Of a DNA stretch of 40,932 bases, positions 14,908 through 36,180 are shown one piece after another. The translations under genes and the position numbers were made by a program. Under the pieces are notes generated by a model, which saw only the letters and a program-made list of their open reading frames with translations, was not told the DNA's origin and did not search any database. Source of the stretch: a virus. The DNA lies in the UHGV virus genome UHGV-2003109. The stretch is one strand, 5' to 3'. Within the stretch, counting starts at the first letter, position 1, and every line of letters begins with the position of its first letter.

Positions 14908-16866
14908 TTACGCCGTACATTTCACCAGACCGCGGTGATCAACTGGCGCGACACCAGCGTCAATACGCACTTTCGTTGTCACGCCATCCACACTGAAGCC
15001 CTCCATCTGATCAATATATGGCGTATCCACACCGTTGAGATAAGCCACTTCAATCGTATCGGAGCCTTTTGACGCAGCCAGGTAGAAGGTGGTCTGGCTG
15101 TTATCATCAAGACGAGGCTCTGCAATAACGGTCGCAAAATCTTTCACCGGGTTAATAATACCGGCGTTAATGTCAGCCCCCTTGACACTTGAGGAGCGAA
15201 TGACCTGGTTAGCAACAGACTCCATCGCCGTCGGTACCAGTACGAACGCAGGACGAATATTCAGATGACGCTCCCCCTCTTTCTGTACGCGCATCAACTG
15301 GCGGGCTTTATCCAGCGATGCCACGTCCATTGCAGCGCTCTCCAGTACGTTTGCATGTTTCGCTTTATCGAACAGACTTACATTATCTGTGGATATTTTC
15401 GGGTTAGACGTCAGAATGGCATAAACCAGATCGGCAATAGTGGATTTCGCCGCACGGCCCAGTTTCATCGGGACATCGGTCAGCATATTCAGATCATCAT
15501 TGATAATGGCCTGACGGGTGATACTGAACAGCTCGCCATAGGTCGCCAGTGCAATAGTGGCCTGTTTATCTCCGGTGGTGACGTATTTATATTCCGCCCC
15601 TTCACGCACCTGACGCAGAGCACTGAAGCCCCCCATACCCACACGATGGGCAATTTTAAAATCAGACAACTGACCTTTCCGCGTCCACTGTTCATAGGTT
15701 TCAGGGGCATCTTCCCAGCCCTGCAGAATGGCTTTGTTCGCAACATCCAGCAGAATATTACCGAAGTCAGACGTACTGTGTGTGAACGCCGCACCGACCA
15801 TCTGCATCGGGTTATAACTGGAAACCCCAATACCCCGTTCAGTCAGTGACATACGGGCATATTCACGCAGGGTCATCCCGTTGTAGACATTATCACGTTC
15901 GGTTTTTTCAAATCCGGCACGCGCCATCAGCGCCTGGCGGATCCCGTCCCCCACAAAATTACCGTTACCGGCATAAATATGATCCAGGGTATTTTTATTG
16001 GATGGCGTGGACTCGCGACCCATCTCGTTCAACAGCTTTTCGCGGGCCTGCTCCAGCGAACATTCAGGATCGGCAAGACACTGAGCCTGCAGCGTCTGAT
16101 AACGCCCGTCAAACATGGCAAACAGATCATTAATACCGTTTACACGCGCTTTTTGCTCTGCCAGTACCTGCGCACGGATGCTGTTTTCATCCACCACGGG
16201 TGCTGCTGCCTGCACTGGCGTCCGGGAGGCTGCAGGTTCATCATCCTGTACGCGTGGAGCACTGTTGCGTGGCGGAGTAATCATGTTTCGAATGGATTCC
16301 GGCATCTTTTTAAATTCCTCTGTACGTTTTGACTGAATACATGCCATTGCCTTAACGGCTGGCGTCACCTGATCAGCAAATCCATGAGCCAGACATTCGG
16401 CTCCGGACATCCAGGTCTCATCCGCCAGCATGGCAGCAATTTCATCGGTGGTTTTCCCGGTTTTCTGTGCATAAGCGGGTAACAGAACCGCCTCAACTTT
16501 ATCGAGCAGGTCGGCATAGGTGCGCATGTCCTCCGCATCACCGCCCGTAAAGCCAAATGGTTTATGAATCATCATGAAGGTGTTTTCCGGCATAATGACC
16601 GGGTTTCCCACCATCGCAATGACCGACGCCATTGACGCCGCCACACCGTCGACATAAACGGTAATGGACGCACCATGTGTTTTCAGCGCATTAAAAATGG
16701 CGATGCCTTCAAAGACATCGCCACCCGGTGAATTAATATGGAGATTAATGTGGGTGATACCGCCCAGTGCATTCAGATCACTGATAAACTGCTTTGCTGT
16801 AACACCCCAGAAACCAATCTCGTCATAAATATAAATATCCGCGTCACTCTGGTGACCAGCCTGCAT
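14908..16866 (-). CDS. Prohead protease (ClpP/S49-like) fused to major capsid protein
   Basis: N-terminal part has protease-like motifs (INSPGGDVFEGIAIFNAL...); C-terminal part resembles an HK97-fold capsid protein; ATG at 16866 follows the portal stop. Confidence 0.85.
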   Translation of the reverse strand: MQAGHQSDADIYIYDEIGFWGVTAKQFISDLNALGGITHINLHINSPGGDVFEGIAIFNALKTHGASITVYVDGVAASMASVIAMVGNPVIMPENTFMMIHKPFGFTGGDAEDMRTYADLLDKVEAVLLPAYAQKTGKTTDEIAAMLADETWMSGAECLAHGFADQVTPAVKAMACIQSKRTEEFKKMPESIRNMITPPRNSAPRVQDDEPAASRTPVQAAAPVVDENSIRAQVLAEQKARVNGINDLFAMFDGRYQTLQAQCLADPECSLEQAREKLLNEMGRESTPSNKNTLDHIYAGNGNFVGDGIRQALMARAGFEKTERDNVYNGMTLREYARMSLTERGIGVSSYNPMQMVGAAFTHSTSDFGNILLDVANKAILQGWEDAPETYEQWTRKGQLSDFKIAHRVGMGGFSALRQVREGAEYKYVTTGDKQATIALATYGELFSITRQAIINDDLNMLTDVPMKLGRAAKSTIADLVYAILTSNPKISTDNVSLFDKAKHANVLESAAMDVASLDKARQLMRVQKEGERHLNIRPAFVLVPTAMESVANQVIRSSSVKGADINAGIINPVKDFATVIAEPRLDDNSQTTFYLAASKGSDTIEVAYLNGVDTPYIDQMEGFSVDGVTTKVRIDAGVAPVDHRGLVKCTA

Positions 16867-16879
16867 CCTGAACCAGGAA

Positions 16880-18388
16880 TTATTCTTCGGACTGGTCGTC
16901 GGTGTGCTGCGGCTCCTGTCGTTTCGTTGCGGCACTGCTGCCTCCTTTATCACTGGCCGGATCGGTATCAAATACCAGATCCAGCTTGCGGTTTTCATCA
17001 ATTTCGGCCTTGCGCCGACGTTTGACATCATCCGGATTACGACCACCTGCACGTACCCAGTCTGATTCTGTCGCCGCTCCACCACGAATCTGAATTTTCC
17101 AGGCCTCAGCCTCCTTAACAGGGTCAATCCACGGCATCACTGGTCCGGAATACACCGCGGTATACAGTGAAGAACGGTCAAGATCGCGGGGTAACCTGAT
17201 AACACCGGATGCCACAGCCTGTTTCAGCCATGCACGATACATCGGGCGGGTTACGGCACCAATAAACCAGTCCTGCAGGATCAGGTAGCCATCAGTAGAC
17301 TCAACCAGTTCCTGACGCTGGGCGCTGTAAGTGCCGTTATAGTTTCGTGCCGTACTGGAAAAACTCAGACGACTGCCCGCCGCCACGGCACGCAACTGAC
17401 CATTACGAAAAGTTTCAAGGTTAGGATTGGGACGATCCGACTTCACCATTCCGATTTCTTCGCCGGGTTTCAGATCGTCGTAAATAATGCCTGGCTGAAT
17501 GGTAAGCTCGCGTTCATTCTCCTTGCTGTCATTACCATCCGTTTCATAGCTCTGTCCGTCGCCTTTCCGGATGTACATCCCCAGAGCAGCGGCGATCCTT
17601 GCTGCAGTCAGCTCAGAATCTTCATACTCTTTCAGGGCGCTGAGGCGGATCAGCACACCGGACAATAAAGACGTCCCGCGCATCTGGTGCAGACGGCGAA
17701 CAAATTTAAGATGCAGCATTCGCTCTGCATCCACTTCTTTGGTTTCCATCTGCCGTCCGGATACAGGACGACTTTTATACACCAGATATTTTTCGGGACG
17801 CCCCCAGTCATCAACAAACACGCCCTGATTCAGCCTGTTGCTCTCATCACTGGTCATGGGAATAAAGTCCGGCTCGAGCGCCTCCAGCCAGAAATGAACA
17901 CCGGCAGAAGGCGTCAGGCTGTTTATGCGCCCGGAAACCATCTGGGCAAACACCTCACCATCGCGCAGCCAGGTACGCAGCATCAGACGTTCCAGCATCG
18001 GACGGGTAAACTGCCCGGTGACTTCCGGACTGACAGACCATTCACTCCATCGGGTGCGTATCTCCGCTGCCAGGTCACGGGCAATGGCACCATTGCGTAA
18101 TACCGGATGTGGCTCGACAATAATCCCGTTTTTCCCCACCACCCGTTCTTCCAGCTTGTCAAATACACCAATGACCAGATCGTGGTTGTTATCAAGGTAA
18201 CGGGCCTGCTCACGTAACGACACGGCCCCGTACTGGCTTAACTGGTCGGCAGTTCGGTTCTCCCGTCGGGCTTTGTGTGTCCGCGTCGTTTTTACGGCCT
18301 CATAAGCCTGGATCACCGCTCGGGAACGCAGCCTTGCCGCTTTCCATCCTGGTGAAAAAACGCCAATCACATCATCAAGAATTGCCAT
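16880..18388 (-). CDS. B: Portal protein
   Basis: Lambda gpB-like size and position; ATG at 18388 overlaps W stop in ATGA. Confidence 0.9.
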   Translation of the reverse strand: MAILDDVIGVFSPGWKAARLRSRAVIQAYEAVKTTRTHKARRENRTADQLSQYGAVSLREQARYLDNNHDLVIGVFDKLEERVVGKNGIIVEPHPVLRNGAIARDLAAEIRTRWSEWSVSPEVTGQFTRPMLERLMLRTWLRDGEVFAQMVSGRINSLTPSAGVHFWLEALEPDFIPMTSDESNRLNQGVFVDDWGRPEKYLVYKSRPVSGRQMETKEVDAERMLHLKFVRRLHQMRGTSLLSGVLIRLSALKEYEDSELTAARIAAALGMYIRKGDGQSYETDGNDSKENERELTIQPGIIYDDLKPGEEIGMVKSDRPNPNLETFRNGQLRAVAAGSRLSFSSTARNYNGTYSAQRQELVESTDGYLILQDWFIGAVTRPMYRAWLKQAVASGVIRLPRDLDRSSLYTAVYSGPVMPWIDPVKEAEAWKIQIRGGAATESDWVRAGGRNPDDVKRRRKAEIDENRKLDLVFDTDPASDKGGSSAATKRQEPQHTDDQSEE

Positions 18389-18600
18389 CAGAACCTCGCC
18401 AGCCGGTACCCGGGATGCCCCCGTCGTCGTGTAATCAGAGCCGCAAGGCGGCGCTCCCACTCCTGCCGCCCCTGCCGGATCTCAGATAAGTTTTCCATGG
18501 TCATCTGCTGACCATTAAAAGTGACGGATTTTCCGTCCAGCACCGCCATTTCAGCTTCCGTATAACGCTGAATCATGGCTTCAATATCATTCTGATTCAT
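18388..18600 (-). CDS. W: Head-tail joining protein W
   Basis: ~70 aa with RRRG motif near the C-terminus as in lambda gpW; start overlaps terminase stop in ATGA. Confidence 0.8.
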   Translation of the reverse strand: MNQNDIEAMIQRYTEAEMAVLDGKSVTFNGQQMTMENLSEIRQGRQEWERRLAALITRRRGHPGYRLARF

Positions 18601-20699
18601 AACCATCCTCCGGAAGTCAGCCAGGGGTTAACATCGTCAGTTACTGTTTTCTTCCGTTTTTGTTTTTTAACAGGCGTGGATACCGGTTCCGGTGTGGGTG
18701 ACGGTTCGGTGCTGTCCGGGACACACTCCAGCCAGGTTTCCCGGCTCGCCCACTCCGGTGCATCCGGCCAGCGGATCTTTTCGTATCCATGCAGAATGAC
18801 CAGAGCCTCGGCATACACCATCAGGTCAAAAGCTTCGTTGGCACCGCGACCCGGCTTACTCCATTTCCCGTCACTGCTCCGCTCTTCATACGTCAGTTCG
18901 TCGTAAAACCAGCTCCCCAGCCAGTCAGGGAAATGCACATAGCCGGGACCTGGCGAGTCACGCCATAACGCGTTATTCACCCGGTCTTTCAGGGCATCCG
19001 TCTGAAGAAGCCAGAGCGGTACATCACCTGCGGCCTGCGCCCGTCGGCCCGTTCGTCCGGTGTTATCAGGGAATGTACGGGTGATCAGTTTTGCGCGCCG
19101 GATGCTGTCGCCCTTAAACAGGTAAATACGTTTACCAAGGCCATCACGACGGCAACGACGCCAGAATTTATAGGCATTATCAGTGACCCCGTCTTCACCG
19201 CCGGAGTCCACCGCCATTGCCATCAGTCGCATTTGTTGAGAAGGATCGGAGGCCAGCGGCCAGCTTTTATGAAAAACATCCGTCAGCAGGACATCCCAGT
19301 CTTCCGGATAGCTGGCCGGATCAATTCGCTGGCTCTCCCCGTCGCTGTCACCGCGCAATGACTGCGTGATGTTGTAACGATCAATAATCCAGCGTTCGCC
19401 ACGGCTGCCATAGCCCGTTACCTGAACCACAAAACGGCGATGACGTCCCGCCTGCACATCCACTGTCGCCACAAGGAAATTAACGCCATCCGGCACACTG
19501 CGGGAAGGAACTGGCTCTGCCCGCTGCTCAAGCAGTTCACTTTTTCGTTGCTCCATGCTGGCGCGGGGAAGATAAGGTAATCCCCAGTCGGTATTGATAA
19601 CCGTCTTGAGTGTTTCTTCACTTCCGGTTGTCTCGTATTCCTGTTCTGCAGTAAGCAGTTTGTAAACGAGTTGCGAGAGTGTCTGGTAAGCAGCTGCCGG
19701 ACCCTCCATCCAGAATGACGCAATACGTGAACGCCTGGGATCACCATAACGACTGCCATCCGCATTGATGGATTCACCATCCCGCAACCAGACCCCACGT
19801 CCGTTCAGCTCACGTTTTTGTTCAGGCATAATCCGTCCTGAACAGAAAGGACACTGAATATAAGCCGCCTCACTTGCCAGCACGGGATCGGCAATATCAC
19901 GGAAACCAGCAACCACATCGCCGCAGGGCTGAAAATACTCACCACAGTGTGGACATGGCCAGTACCAGCGACGGCGATCACCACGGTTATAGAGCGACAG
20001 GATCCCCGTGGTTGGTGGAGCCTCATGCGGTGAAGTCCGTCGCCATTTCACATCCTTCACATCCCTGCCGGGGGAACTCTCCACCAGCGTCATACCGCTG
20101 GACATAAATGTGGTGGTACGTTTTGAGGCAAGAGAGAAGGCATCCCCCTCGCCATCAATATCTTCCGGAAAACGGTCATAATCCGTCAGCGCGACGCATT
20201 TATAATCTGATGAGGACATGATATTGACTGACGGCCAGCCGATTTTCAGGTAGTTGCCAGCAAGGAATGTTCTGTCATAAACGTTGTTGTCATTTTTGTT
20301 CGGACTCAGGCGACTGACCACTTCCGGGCTGACGCGAAACGTTCTGGCGAGTCGTTTTTTGGAGTGTTCGCGGGCTTTTTCCTCTGTCATCTGAATGATC
20401 AGCATATCCGCAGGATCGCAAATCACGTTGTAAATCACCCAGCCGTCAATCAGGCCGATAGTCTTGCCGGTTCGTGCCGGGCCAACAAATATCACTGCGT
20501 CGTATTCACGCGAGGCCAGGCAGTTCATAGGCTCAATAACATACGGTGCCACCAGCGGATCCCACGGGACTGAGTTCCCTGCCCCCATGGGCACCCGCAT
20601 ATACTGAGTAACGGCATCAGCAACCCGCATTCGTCTCGGTGCGCGAAGTATATAACCTGAATCGGTTCGTGCTGCCTTTGCGGTTTCCTGATTCAGCAT
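18597..20699 (-). CDS. A: Terminase large subunit
   Basis: 700 aa with ATPase P-loop (VGPARTGKT) and C-terminal nuclease region; lambda gpA-like. Confidence 0.95.
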   Translation of the reverse strand: MLNQETAKAARTDSGYILRAPRRMRVADAVTQYMRVPMGAGNSVPWDPLVAPYVIEPMNCLASREYDAVIFVGPARTGKTIGLIDGWVIYNVICDPADMLIIQMTEEKAREHSKKRLARTFRVSPEVVSRLSPNKNDNNVYDRTFLAGNYLKIGWPSVNIMSSSDYKCVALTDYDRFPEDIDGEGDAFSLASKRTTTFMSSGMTLVESSPGRDVKDVKWRRTSPHEAPPTTGILSLYNRGDRRRWYWPCPHCGEYFQPCGDVVAGFRDIADPVLASEAAYIQCPFCSGRIMPEQKRELNGRGVWLRDGESINADGSRYGDPRRSRIASFWMEGPAAAYQTLSQLVYKLLTAEQEYETTGSEETLKTVINTDWGLPYLPRASMEQRKSELLEQRAEPVPSRSVPDGVNFLVATVDVQAGRHRRFVVQVTGYGSRGERWIIDRYNITQSLRGDSDGESQRIDPASYPEDWDVLLTDVFHKSWPLASDPSQQMRLMAMAVDSGGEDGVTDNAYKFWRRCRRDGLGKRIYLFKGDSIRRAKLITRTFPDNTGRTGRRAQAAGDVPLWLLQTDALKDRVNNALWRDSPGPGYVHFPDWLGSWFYDELTYEERSSDGKWSKPGRGANEAFDLMVYAEALVILHGYEKIRWPDAPEWASRETWLECVPDSTEPSPTPEPVSTPVKKQKRKKTVTDDVNPWLTSGGWL

Positions 20700-21193
20700 T
20701 ACTCCTCCTGCTGTAATTCCTCCTCATCATCCGCACCTGCTTCAGTCACCCGCAGGGCTATCTGATCGCGCAGATCATCAATAATGGACTGAACACGGCT
20801 CACAGCGGCAGGCTGCAGACCGCAGTCACGTTCAAGAATATCCGGTAATGTCTCCAGCACCTGCACGACCGCTTTTGCCCAGATGGCAAACTCCCGTCTG
20901 ACATCACTGGCCGGAATGAGTTGTGCCGTTTCCTGTTCGAACTTAAGACGCTCACGTTCAGACTGATACCAGGCTTTGCGCTCATGCGCGTCCATTTCGC
21001 CTTCTGCAACCGGCGGTGGTAATGCCAGAAATGCCGACACAATATCAACCACCCGATAAAGCTTGAGGTTGCTTTCATGCCCCCCTGCAACGGGTAGATT
21101 TTGCAGCCTTGCCGCAGCAGTCTGGCGATGTACACCTGACAATGCCGCCAGTTGACTGATATTCAGCGTCAGATTTTTTAACTCTCGATCCAT
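20699..21193 (-). CDS. nu1: Terminase small subunit
   Basis: 164 aa; N-terminal wHTH (NISQLAALSGVHRQTAAARL); lambda Nu1-like; TAATG overlap with A. Confidence 0.85.
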   Translation of the reverse strand: MDRELKNLTLNISQLAALSGVHRQTAAARLQNLPVAGGHESNLKLYRVVDIVSAFLALPPPVAEGEMDAHERKAWYQSERERLKFEQETAQLIPASDVRREFAIWAKAVVQVLETLPDILERDCGLQPAAVSRVQSIIDDLRDQIALRVTEAGADDEEELQQEE

Positions 21194-21349
21194 ACCCGCT
21201 CCAGAATGTTTTAAACATGCATCTTGCGAACAACTTTAGGCAAACGGTGTTAGCGATGAACAAAAAACAATCAGAATCGACACCATAAAAATAAAACCAC
21301 TGTAATACCAATCAATTACAGTAGTGGTGATGACGAATAAAATTTCAAA

Positions 21350-21400
21350 AACTAGCCTTTTTCCGCGACGCTCCCGCCCCGTGGCAGGGGCCCCCACCGG
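21350..21400. other. Candidate cohesive end site (cosN with adjacent cosB-like region)
   Basis: Minus-strand GGGGCGGGAGCGTCGCGGAAAAAGG...GAAATTTTATTCGTCATCA resembles lambda GGGCGGCGACCTCGCGGGTTTTCGC...GAAAATTTT...CTTCGTCATA; ~160 bp upstream of Nu1. Confidence 0.45.
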
Positions 21401-21739
21401 GAGGACCCGACAGCCTGACAGCCGTGACGAGCATCTGATACAGCGCTTTACATAATGGCATAGGAATAATTCAGAAGGACATCACAGCATGCCCACACAA
21501 ATTAGTGTGAGTGTCCTGTTTCTTCCTACGCACAGGACTGACGAGCATGAGGGGAAAATACGCGAACCATAAATGCCTCATCTTCAGCAATGCAGCCGAA
21601 CAGGACGATATTGTAAATTCACCTAATTACGAGGACATTGCAGTAGTTGAATTGCAGCTCTGTATTAGCCTGCAGTGACAGAATGCGATATTGACTCTGT
21701 CACAGGTGAAATAGTTTGAATGATTAGCAGTTATGGTGC

Positions 21740-23449: not shown

Positions 23450-23656
23450 CTTCATTTTCACTTTTTTAAATCCAACGACAGACGGCTGGCATTTAAGTAT
23501 TGTGAAATATTATCAAATGTAATCATCATTGATTTACAAAAGATACATTTTGCCCCGAAAGGATTCATGTCAGAAACATCAAAAGATGATGTTCTATACT
23601 GGGAACCATGACAACACGGGCATCTAAAGTGAATATGGTTTGTAATATTGTCTACC

Positions 23657-23869
23657 TCAAAGCGCCACTACATGAACAGCGGCAGGACCTTTAGGTCCGT
23701 TCTCAATACCAAATTCAACTTCCTGATTCTCAGTTAATGTTTTGAAATCGTTGCTCTGAATTGCTGAGAAATGGACAAACACATCTTTGCTGCCATCTTT
23801 CGGCGTGATGAAACCAAAACCTTTTTCAGGGTTAAACCATTTCACTAAACCAGTCATTTTGTTAGACAT
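23657..23869 (-). CDS. cspI: Cold shock protein, CspI-like
   Basis: [45 protein letters not shown]... with CSD RNP motifs; ~370 nt upstream leader. Confidence 0.9.
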
Positions 23870-24238
23870 AATTATTACCTTTTGAAGAAATTAGCCCTTG
23901 GGCAGAATGGTCCGAAAAAAAATATCAGAGAGAAAAACCAACAAGGAAATCTCAAGAGGTACAAATAATAAAATTATAACAATGACTGCTTCAGATAAAT
24001 TTGTAACAAACCAGAACACCATTAACGCATGATTAACCACCCATAGCAAGGATTACTTTTGTAAAGAAAAACACAGCAATGAAAGAATAGCTTTATTTAT
24101 TAATAAAACGTGTCATTCTGATTAATGACCTTTTATCTTACCCTTAAGATTTCAGGAATTTTGACTCATGGAAGAGTCCTTTTTATTTAAATTTTACATT
24201 CAGCGATGTAAATGTTCCGATTTAATATTACCCTACAT

Positions 24239-26258: not shown

Positions 26259-26541
26259 TTGAGATTGTGGTGCTTTTTGTGGGAGTCATCCACTTACGCA
26301 CTTTGTTTTGCCATGCCAGCAGTTAGCTTCTGCTGTAAAACTATTCATGCAGCAAACCTGCACTTCACCACAATGGTTAGCATACTTTTCCTGATTAAGA
26401 TTTTGCCAAATATGCTGGCCATTGTTTCATGTATTGGACCTCCTTACTTTTTATTAAAGAGATCCAATATTCACTACTCTGTCCGTATCTCTACTCAGGC
26501 ATCAGCCTTCTTCGTTATCGTATACAGACGAGCGATGAATT

Positions 26542-26757
26542 TTAATCAGTAATGATGACATTTGCTGCTGCAGGACCTTTAGCACCACTCTCTATAGAGA
26601 AGGTAACCTTTTGACCTTCAAATAAGGTTCGATAATTATCATTCTGAATCGCAGAAAAATGCACAAACACATCTTTACTACCATCAACAGGAGAAATAAA
26701 GCCGAAACCTTTATCAGCGTTAAACCATTTTACTAAACCAGTCATTTTATTTGACAT
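26542..26757 (-). CDS. cspB: Cold shock protein, CspB-like
   Basis: [67 protein letters not shown]. Confidence 0.9.
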
Positions 26758-27057
26758 TCTACATTCCTTAACTTGAGCCTTTCGGCATAAATGGTTTGCA
26801 TAACAGAAACGACTTCGTACTTAATTGGAGAGACTCAAAGAAGGAATAAGTGAATAACACCTGAAATGAGAACTGCTTTAGTAAACTACTTCGTATATCG
26901 TCTGTTCTTCAAACCGACGCAATCATTAACGCATAGTTGAACATATGAAGCAATGTTTATTTTAGACATCCAGCCATCTTCAACCCCATCAAAAAACTAT
27001 AGCTTTCTTCAGGAACGTGTGTATAGTGCGCCAAGTTATCAGTATTAAGGAATTTTT

Positions 27058-30321: not shown

Positions 30322-30477
30322 TTACTCCTCAGGTTCGTAAGCTGTGAAGACAGCGACCTCCGTCTGCCCGGTTCGGATTCGTACCTCGCAGAGGTCTTTC
30401 CTCGTTACCAGTGCCGTCACTATGACGGTTAAACAGATGACGATCAGGGCGATTAACATCGCCTTTTGCTGCTTCAT
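30322..30477 (-). CDS. hokD: Hok-family type I toxin (HokD/RelF-identical peptide)
   Basis: MKQQKAMLIALIVICLTVIVTALVTRKDLCEVRIRTGQTEVAVFTAYEPEE; AAGGAGA RBS; track ORF is an in-frame N-terminal extension. Confidence 0.9.
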   Translation of the reverse strand: MKQQKAMLIALIVICLTVIVTALVTRKDLCEVRIRTGQTEVAVFTAYEPEE

Positions 30478-30659
30478 AGCCTGCTTCTCCTTGCCTTTCG
30501 GCACGTAAGAGGCTAACCTACATGTGTCTAGCATGAAATTGGCCTCAGATTAATGTTAAGCGTCTTGCAGGACGCGTAATGTTAACTGGGGCTTTTCTCT
30601 ATCTGCCGTTGGTGTTCATGCCCGAGGCAGATAGCCTCAAGCACCCGCAGCAATTTTAC

Positions 30660-36124: not shown

Positions 36125-36180
36125 TTTCTGGTGACGTTTGGCGGTATCAGTTTTACTCCGTGACTGCTCTGCCGCCGTTT
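36125..36180 (+). ncRNA. dicF: DicF small regulatory RNA
   Basis: tttctggtgacgtttggcggtatcagttttactccgtgactgctctgccgcc followed by a T-run; matches E. coli DicF; between ydfB-like and dicB. Confidence 0.8.

Follow-up and report, generated by a model that had tools for sequence, protein, structure and literature searches.

Where would the packaged genome of the UHGV virus genome UHGV-2003109 begin and end, and is the site that would set these ends still in use? The question is raised by a short stretch on the minus strand of this DNA, just upstream of the small terminase gene, in which a preliminary description had seen a likeness to the cohesive-end site (cos) of phage lambda. The DNA analysed here is one window, that is, the whole stretch of 40,932 nt. 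Judged by its sequence, the minus strand from 21408 to about 21194 is a genuine lambda-type cos, of a common and already catalogued type. It belongs to an apparently complete lambdoid E. coli prophage of the Qin/mEp460-like kind, and it most likely works as the lambda cos does, for which a probability of about 0.82 is given. What was observed directly comprises the sequence elements and how they are spaced, how far relatives conserve them or change them in concert, and the families to which the neighbouring proteins belong. In the numbering used below, +1 is the G at window position 21379 on the minus strand, and the window coordinate is 21380 minus the position.

The cosQ-cosN core and its terminase

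Read 5′ to 3′, the minus strand is ...GTC GGGTCCT CCCGGTGGGGGCCCCTGCCACG, followed by GGGCGGGAGCGT and then by CGCGGAAAAAGGCTAGTTTTTGAAATTTTATTCGTCATCACCACTACTGTAATTGATTGGTATTACAGTGG..., with the predicted nicks on the two sides of GGGCGGGAGCGT. The first element is cosQ (i.e., the packaging-termination signal, PMC4669245), which reads GGGTCCT at 21402–21408 on the minus strand; it is identical to the cosQ of lambda and lies at −29 to −23 from the top-strand nick, compared with −30 to −24 in lambda. The cosN core comes next at 21366–21381 (minus strand) and consists of CG, GGGCGGGAGCGT and CG, the nick flanks ACG and CGCGG of lambda being kept with a spacing of 12 nt. By analogy with lambda, the minus strand (the top strand of the phage) would be nicked between 21380 and 21379 and the other strand between 21368 and 21367, and the predicted 5′ cohesive end is GGGCGGGAGCGT, running from 21379 to 21368 on the minus strand. 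This 12-mer agrees with that of lambda at 8 of 12 positions, and the differences (positions 7, 8, 9 and 11) are all located in the right half. It is this half (positions 7–12) that is naturally variable, for example in N15 (9 and 12) and Gifsy-1 (8, 9 and 11), and conservation holds for the left half, the flanking CG and cosQ (PMC4669245).

The elements standing in register with lambda are cosQ, the ACG flank, GGGCGG at +1 to +6, T at +12, CGCGG at +13 to +17 and the A/T-rich stretch. The combination GGGTCCT-N20-24-CGGGGCGG is unique in the 40.9 kb of the window (21408 to 21374, minus strand) and was absent from 100 dinucleotide-preserving shuffles; ACGGGGCGG-N5-TCGCGG has a single occurrence with 0 mismatches in the window, against a chance expectation of 0.06 with 2 mismatches allowed. 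For the pairwise alignment with lambda, the lambda cos junction was assembled from the ends of NC_001416. The segment −35 to +45 scored 18, as against 7.6 ± 1.4 for shuffles (z = 7.5), and no other 80-nt stretch of the window, on either strand, scored as high in local alignment with the lambda cos. The preliminary description had proposed a lambda-type cos whose 12-nt cohesive end marks the termini of virion DNA, and by analogy cosQ, the CG nick flanks, GGGCGG, the 12-nt spacing and the gpA-family large terminase described below all point to the same reading. The minus-strand strings that it quoted were found again, GGGGCGGGAGCGTCGCGGAAAAAGG from 21380 and then GAAATTTTATTCGTCATCA at 21347–21329; cosQ, which lies inside the region it had marked, was yet unmentioned there.

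On the other side of cosN there is an I2-like A/T-rich spacer with oligo-A and oligo-T runs, AAAAAGGCTAGTTTTTGAAATTTTAT, at 21337–21362 (+18 to +43, minus strand). In lambda, bp 18–50 (I2) form a bent A/T-rich segment in which bp 30–35 are critical (PMC4856287); +30 to +35 read TTTGAA in the window and TATGAA in lambda, and TGAAATTTT at +33 to +41 stands in register with the lambda TGAAAATTTT at +32 to +41. The sequence CGCGG(A/G)AAA(A/C)GGCT(A/G)GTTTT is kept across Enterobacterales relatives, and a related form is found in Pasteurellaceae. Two strings had been offered as parallels to the lambda cosB. One of them, GAAATTTT, is in register and falls within I2, whereas the other, TTCGTCAT, is located at +43 to +50 here and at +67 to +74 in lambda. 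Because it is 24 bp out of register, TTCGTCAT was rejected as evidence of a shared cosB; the identity is probably coincidental, and the chance that two stretches of ~190 nt have one 8-mer in common is, by our own estimate, roughly that of a coin flip.

The small terminase gene begins at the expected distance, its ATG being 186 nt past the predicted left end (+187), compared with 190 nt (+191) in lambda. It encodes TerS (i.e., the small terminase subunit), a protein of 164 aa (20699–21193, minus strand) with a predicted N-terminal helix-turn-helix. The gene had been called Nu1, which stands as a remote relationship and does not stand as a family assignment. TerS matches DUF1441 (2.7e-41, 141 bits) and, over its full length, phrog_141 'terminase small subunit' (7e-74), that is to say, it is of the Gifsy-2/mEp460 type; a match to Pfam Phage_Nu1 (PF07471) was absent even at E ≤ 10, and phmmer gave no meaningful match among PDB sequences. 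TerS also matches the phrog_57 of Nu1 over its full length (8e-10), and lambda Nu1 matches phrog_141 (6e-8). When a 19-member family profile was used in hhalign, residues 9–55 were aligned with residues 2–50 of the Nu1 winged helix-turn-helix at E = 0.003, with a low probability of 10%. TerS would be only a distant relative of Nu1, with a putative winged helix-turn-helix at its N-terminus.

The large terminase TerL has 700 aa (18597–20699, minus strand), and its start overlaps the TerS stop at 20699. It belongs to the lambda gpA family, which combines ATPase and endonuclease (GpA_ATPase 3.3e-71, GpA_nuclease 1.1e-85, phrog_15), and the next large open reading frame (ORF) after it is a lambda-family portal. 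Large terminases of the gpA family are linked with 5′ cohesive ends (as cited in PMC12315714). These data bear on the alternative that the DNA is packaged by the headful (pac) mechanism and that the lambda-like string is irrelevant, for which this analysis gave no supporting point. Pac packaging was rejected because of the family of TerL, which has both lambda-type domains, and because of the complete cos layout, in which cosQ, cosN and the candidate cosB stand at lambda spacing, and it is scarcely credible here.

The putative cosB segment

The segment between cosN and TerS was compared in 66 loci with TerS relatives, taking one genome per species and anchoring the sequences on the conserved nick flanks. 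CACG-N12-CGCGG is located upstream of a DUF1441 TerS in about 50 of the 66 loci, in many Gammaproteobacteria, at 97–235 nt before the TerS start. When these loci are aligned at the nick, the same layout recurs: cosQ, cosN, the conserved start of I2, an A/T-rich stretch and a block at +44 to +58, followed by an opposite-strand consensus for the integration host factor (IHF) at +62 to +76 and by two copies of the block, an inverted one at about +92 to +98 and a direct one at about +117 to +122.

In the window, the block is the candidate R3, TCGTCATCACCAC(T), at 21323–21336 on the minus strand. It occupies +44 to +57, the position of R3 in lambda (bp 50–65) and in N15 (bp 48–60), and by analogy it is proposed as the principal TerS site. 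Among 41 window-type sequences, conservation starts at cosQ and is poor leftward of it, and the candidate R3 is nearly invariant. In relatives, the R3 position holds CATCATCATCAT, GTGCAGCAGCA or GGCGGCGGCAGCA, which vary in concert with both the inverted copy and the TerS helix. The inverted copy in the window is the candidate R2, TTATGGTGTCGA (reverse complement TCGACACCATAA), at 21277–21288 (+92 to +103, minus strand). Most lineages have an inverted element at +92 to +98, the core of which is reverse-complementary to the R3 core of the same lineage, the pairs being CACCA/TGGTG, CATCAT/ATGATG, GCAGCA/TGCTGC and CACTGAA/TTCAGTG. For example, the R3 block CATCACCAC of the window group goes with the inverted copy TGGTGTCGA, CATCATCATCAT of many Enterobacterales with ATGATGTCGA, CAGCACTGAA of Gifsy-2 with TTCAGTGTCGA, and GTGCAGCAGCA of the loci L044 and L045, whose TerS helix has NRNM for HRQT, with TGCTGC. 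The third element, the candidate R1, is a direct copy TGTTCATCGCTA at 21251–21262 (+118 to +129, minus strand); it is a weak match (8/12), the majority form in relatives is TTCATCACTA, and a direct copy at +117 to +122 is present in most lineages. A repeat search returned no direct repeats in the cos region. The elements are named R3, R2 and R1 mainly because the R3 block and its inverted copy change together across lineages.

Between R3 and R2 lies the candidate IHF site I1, at 21306–21318 (+62 to +74, minus strand), the opposite strand of which reads TACCAATCAATTA and has one mismatch to the consensus WATCAANNNNTTR. The whole window contains 29 IHF sites with one mismatch and 0 exact ones. 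At this site, the position and orientation are equal in most relatives, close relatives match WATCAANNNNTTR exactly at +62 to +74, and the same scan locates I1 of lambda at +79 in the same orientation. In the 41 variants, the four N positions of the consensus vary, and TAA and TTGATA are fixed. A cosB of the order R3-I1-R2-R1 is suggested by these comparisons, in which the IHF site is better supported than R2 and R1, and the R sites remain candidates.

The IHF core is flanked by an 11-nt inverted repeat, ACTACTGTAAT and ATTACAGTGGT, which is followed by TTTTATTTTTA (21296–21325, minus strand) and resembles an intrinsic terminator. The segment +55 to +95 could act mainly at the RNA level, its hairpin and U-run forming a terminator or attenuator that in the lysogen would keep upstream transcription out of terS, instead of serving as an IHF-bent part of cosB. 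The terminator-like match lies on the coding (late-transcript) strand, the RNA fold has −12.7 kcal/mol (z = −3.2), and the inner 9 pairs of the hairpin are kept in 33–37 of 37 variants, one of them occurring as T-A, T-G and C-G, all of which would suit such a function. However, the stem has only 3 G-C pairs and its outer pairs are broken in many variants; the loop coincides exactly with the IHF consensus and varies at the N positions only; and the relative L010 retains the IHF site and the T-run without the stem. A mainly RNA-level role is thus considered distinctly unlikely. A strong IHF site is often accompanied by an A/T element, and the T-run after the inverted repeat could equally be read as that of I1. 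The terminator role and the IHF role of +55 to +95 are compatible and do not exclude each other.

From R1 to the TerS start codon there extends a leader of 57 nt (21194–21250, minus strand), which contains the palindrome-like ATGCATGTTTAAAACAT and is found only in the E. coli mEp460-type group. It is highly conserved in window-type sequences and absent where R1 overlaps the ATG. Such an overlap is observed in those relatives whose TerS ATG lies near +130 (L019–L043, L052, L055 and L077, the last being LLS) and whose candidate R1 is GTTCACCATCATG, and through it TerS could repress its own synthesis, at the level of translation or transcription.

On the model of lambda, the elements of the window would work together as follows. 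During late growth, TerS would bind the cosB of the concatemeric DNA at R3 (+44 to +57) and at the inverted R2 (+92 to +103), IHF would bend the DNA between them at I1 (+62 to +74), and R1 (+118 to +129) would be accessory. The cosB-bound TerS would anchor two copies of the gpA-type TerL on cosN, and TerL would nick 12 bp apart between the conserved CG dinucleotides, leaving the 5′ overhang GGGCGGGAGCGT, so that virion DNA would have its left end at window position 21379 and would run from there along the minus strand into terS. The bent I2-like spacer may help in a post-cleavage step, and cosQ, 22 bp upstream of the nick, would signal the nicking of the next cosN once the head is full.

The prophage and the spread of its cos

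The minus strand of the window carries a complete and collinear late operon from the terminase to the tail fibre, with TerS, TerL, the portal, a protease-capsid fusion, tail genes, the tape measure and J; upstream of the operon are lysis genes, a Q-like antiterminator, and immunity and recombination genes. The fusion is a 739-aa ORF (14908–17127, minus strand), judged by eye from its translation to combine a ClpP-like protease with the major capsid protein, and it resembles the tripartite arrangement of capsid genes in Gifsy-2 (cited in PMC12315714). The element is marked as Qin-like by the DicF small RNA (36126–36177, plus strand), the sok antitoxin RNA (30472–30646, minus strand) and two cspA-type thermoregulator leaders upstream of cspI/cspB-like genes (23630–24015 and 26526–26918, minus strand), all of which are Rfam matches above the gathering score.

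Elements of this kind are widespread. Of 5426 complete E. coli genomes, 2113 contain a similar stretch of 371 nt, and the exact 25-mer from +1 is found in at least 119 IMG/VR contigs. No IMG/VR contig carrying the site ends at the nick; since they are mostly prophages integrated in isolate genomes, these contigs are silent on the physical ends. Among 80 IMG/VR contigs with the same cosN, cosQ reads GGGTCCT in 78. After +34, the 80 contigs with the identical 25-mer divide into three sequences, each with its own TerS variant: that of the window (about 50), that of cdtI and Tritos with GGCGGCGGCAGCA (about 24) and one with GGCCACCATCATC (9). That is to say, there is a mosaic joint at 21346/21347 (+33/+34), where an identical cosQ-cosN-I2 is joined to at least 3 cosB/TerS modules (L002, L003, L012 and L079–L158), and therefore the two units recombine independently.

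The sequence at the cosQ position also varies. Many relatives (L014, L016, L019, L026, L027, L030, L039, L044, L046–L062 and L075, which is Gifsy-2) carry AAGGTACTCC at −30 to −20, where the window and lambda carry GGGTCCTCC. It has been stated that natural variation of cosQ is not apparent (PMC4669245); contrary to this, AAGGTACTCC may be a natural cosQ variant.

Taken across the lineages, the DUF1441 TerS may read triplet-like cosB repeats (CATCATCAT, CACCAC, CAGCAGCA and GGCGGCGGC) at +44 to +57, together with inverted and direct copies at fixed distances around an IHF site, with cosQ-cosN-I2 exchanged independently of cosB-terS at the joint +33/+34 and with the variant cosQ AAGGTACTCC in some members. 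The odds of this scheme as a whole are put at even. If true, it would offer a naturally occurring series of packaging specificities for a biochemically unstudied class of terminases. The cos locus itself brings no new mechanism, and its exact cosN already opens public phage records; the cross-lineage cosB pattern of the DUF1441 terminase class is at most a mildly new observation and a modest lead for work on packaging specificity. In practice, the cos fixes where the packaged genome ends and how it is oriented in a prophage type that is very common in E. coli, and this can be used in prophage annotation, in predicting the DNA that is packageable by a helper phage or satellite, and in reading the orientation of Chi sites relative to cos.

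Probable activity of the site and comparison with known phages

TerS homologues were found in 58 phage records, including VT1-Sakai, Stx2 phages, Gifsy-2, Fels-1, cdtI and Tritos, and TerS is 99–100% identical in phi458, Ayreon and mEp460, which have the same cosB, and in others (100% for phi458 and Ayreon). Among them, phi458 has a cos nearly identical to that of the window, and the terminase module is also common to both. It is a spontaneously induced, plaque-forming siphovirus (PMC9701743), and this bears on the view that the site is a cos by descent only, now unused in a cryptic or defective prophage like Qin in E. coli K-12. In its favour, the closest match among E. coli genomes (99.2%) is located at the Qin locus, where a Qin-type prophage is degraded and its TerL truncated; DicF and further genes of the Qin type are present in the window, and there is a minority substitution both in the IHF core and in R1. 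Against this, the ORFs of TerS, TerL, portal, protease-capsid fusion, tape measure, J and tail fibre are full length and collinear, apart from these substitutions the cos elements do not differ from those of the viable phi458, and one IMG/VR contig has the exact variant of the window. It is thus unlikely that the site is a relic, and the activity of this particular copy is argued by analogy with lambda.

The predicted nick can be compared with the ends of several phage records. The GenBank records of Tritos (linear) and cdtI open with GGGCGGGAGCGT, sharing the 33 nt GGGCGGGAGCGTCGCGGAAAAAGGCTAGTTTTT, and close with ...GGGTCCT(C/T)CCGGTGGGG-N4-CTGCCACG (i.e., GGGTCCT-N19-ACG, ending in ...CCACG), exactly at the predicted nick. 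They differ from the window in switching at +34 to another cosB (GGCGGCGGCAGCA), and their TerS is only 42% identical. The linear record of mEp460_4F5 (LR595868.1; L007 1–30 and the end of L008) begins 5 nt to the left of the predicted nick (CCACGGGGCGGGAGCG...) and is without 3 bp inside cosN, where GCGTCGCGG reads GCGCGG; this loss may be a cohesive-end assembly artefact or a real variant.

LLS has a homologous architecture, and a 12-nt end is annotated in its record as '5′ extended single-strand cohesive site GGGCGGCGCGCT', 129 nt before the homologous TerS. This end is described as inferred and as matching the putative cos of mEp213, with reference to Vahanian et al. 2017 (PMC12315714). 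LLS and mEp213 differ from the window in the end GGGCGGCGCGCT, in the CATCAT-type R sites and in being without the 57-nt leader. Gifsy-2 (L075, NC_010393) shares the gene order and the R3-IHF-R2-R1 layout; it differs in the cosQ variant AAGGTACTCC and in having 14 nt between the flanks (CACG GGTGGCTTCGGGCT CGCGG), ~215 nt upstream of TerS, which suggests another overhang length or shifted nicks. In Cr-LKS3, ends of 9 nt have been measured (PMC9303873).

Such cases raise the alternative that the cos of the window is in working order and is nicked at shifted positions or not 12 nt apart, so that the overhang would be other than GGGCGGGAGCGT, for example 9–14 nt long. The measured 9-nt end of Cr-LKS3, whose TerS is a distant relative, the 14-nt flank spacing of Gifsy-2 and the 3 bp missing from cosN in the mEp460_4F5 record would agree with it. 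However, ACG and CGCGG are exactly 12 nt apart in the window, as in lambda and Gifsy-1, and three independent phage records put the end at the same base, which makes another overhang highly unlikely.

Several points weigh against a cos that works here as in lambda, and they concern the binding sites, the protein and the ends. Tested within the window only, the R3/R2/R1 repeat (8/12 and 8/12) does not reach significance (P = 0.25), and its recurrence across lineages was relied on instead. The IHF core of the window has a rare mismatch, TTGGT for TTGAT (G for A at 21309, +72), and R1 departs from the majority of the 41 window-type sequences (G for A at 21255, +126); both changes are carried by one IMG/VR contig. 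Because TerS is not a member of Pfam Nu1, its putative mode of DNA binding is extrapolated. The overhang length varies in the wider family, with 9 nt in Cr-LKS3, which has a distant DUF1441 TerS, and a flank spacing of 14 nt in Gifsy-2, and for Tritos, cdtI and LLS the ends of the records may have been deduced from lambda in the first place. Measured ends for a phage with this exact cosB were not found in the literature covered, which did not include Vahanian et al. 2017 and Asakura et al. 2007 (cdtI); a full-text search for GGGCGGGAGCGT, which did not cover the survey of Vahanian et al. 2017 (Virology 509:140), gave only unrelated mammalian papers and no phage literature.

A lambda-like working cos remains the preferred reading, and the comparison with the better-known cos phages defines what is shared. 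Gifsy-1, which is listed among the lambda-like cos phages (PMC4669245, PMC4856287), has the cohesive end GGGCGGCAGCGT (NC_010392), matching that of the window at 11 of 12 positions and differing at position 7, with the same cosQ and the same CG before the nick. It differs in its Nu1-type TerS, its head genes of the lambda/21 type, its unrelated cosB and its right flank, CGCAGG instead of CGCGG.

With lambda, the window has in common an identical cosQ, the flanks ACG and CGCGG, the left half GGGCGG, the 12-nt spacing, a gpA-family TerL, the A/T-rich I2-like spacer and a candidate IHF site in the same orientation between a putative direct and a putative inverted repeat. The two differ in position, since cosQ of the window is 1 bp nearer to the nick and R3 begins about 6 bp nearer to cosN, and in symmetry, 8 of 16 cosN positions being symmetric in the window and 10 of 16 in lambda (own count). 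They also differ in what would be recognised and by which protein: the R sequences of the window have the form C[A/G]NCACCA[C/T] and are unrelated to those of lambda, whose core is CGTTTCC, and the TerS of the window belongs to DUF1441, whereas that of lambda belongs to Phage_Nu1.

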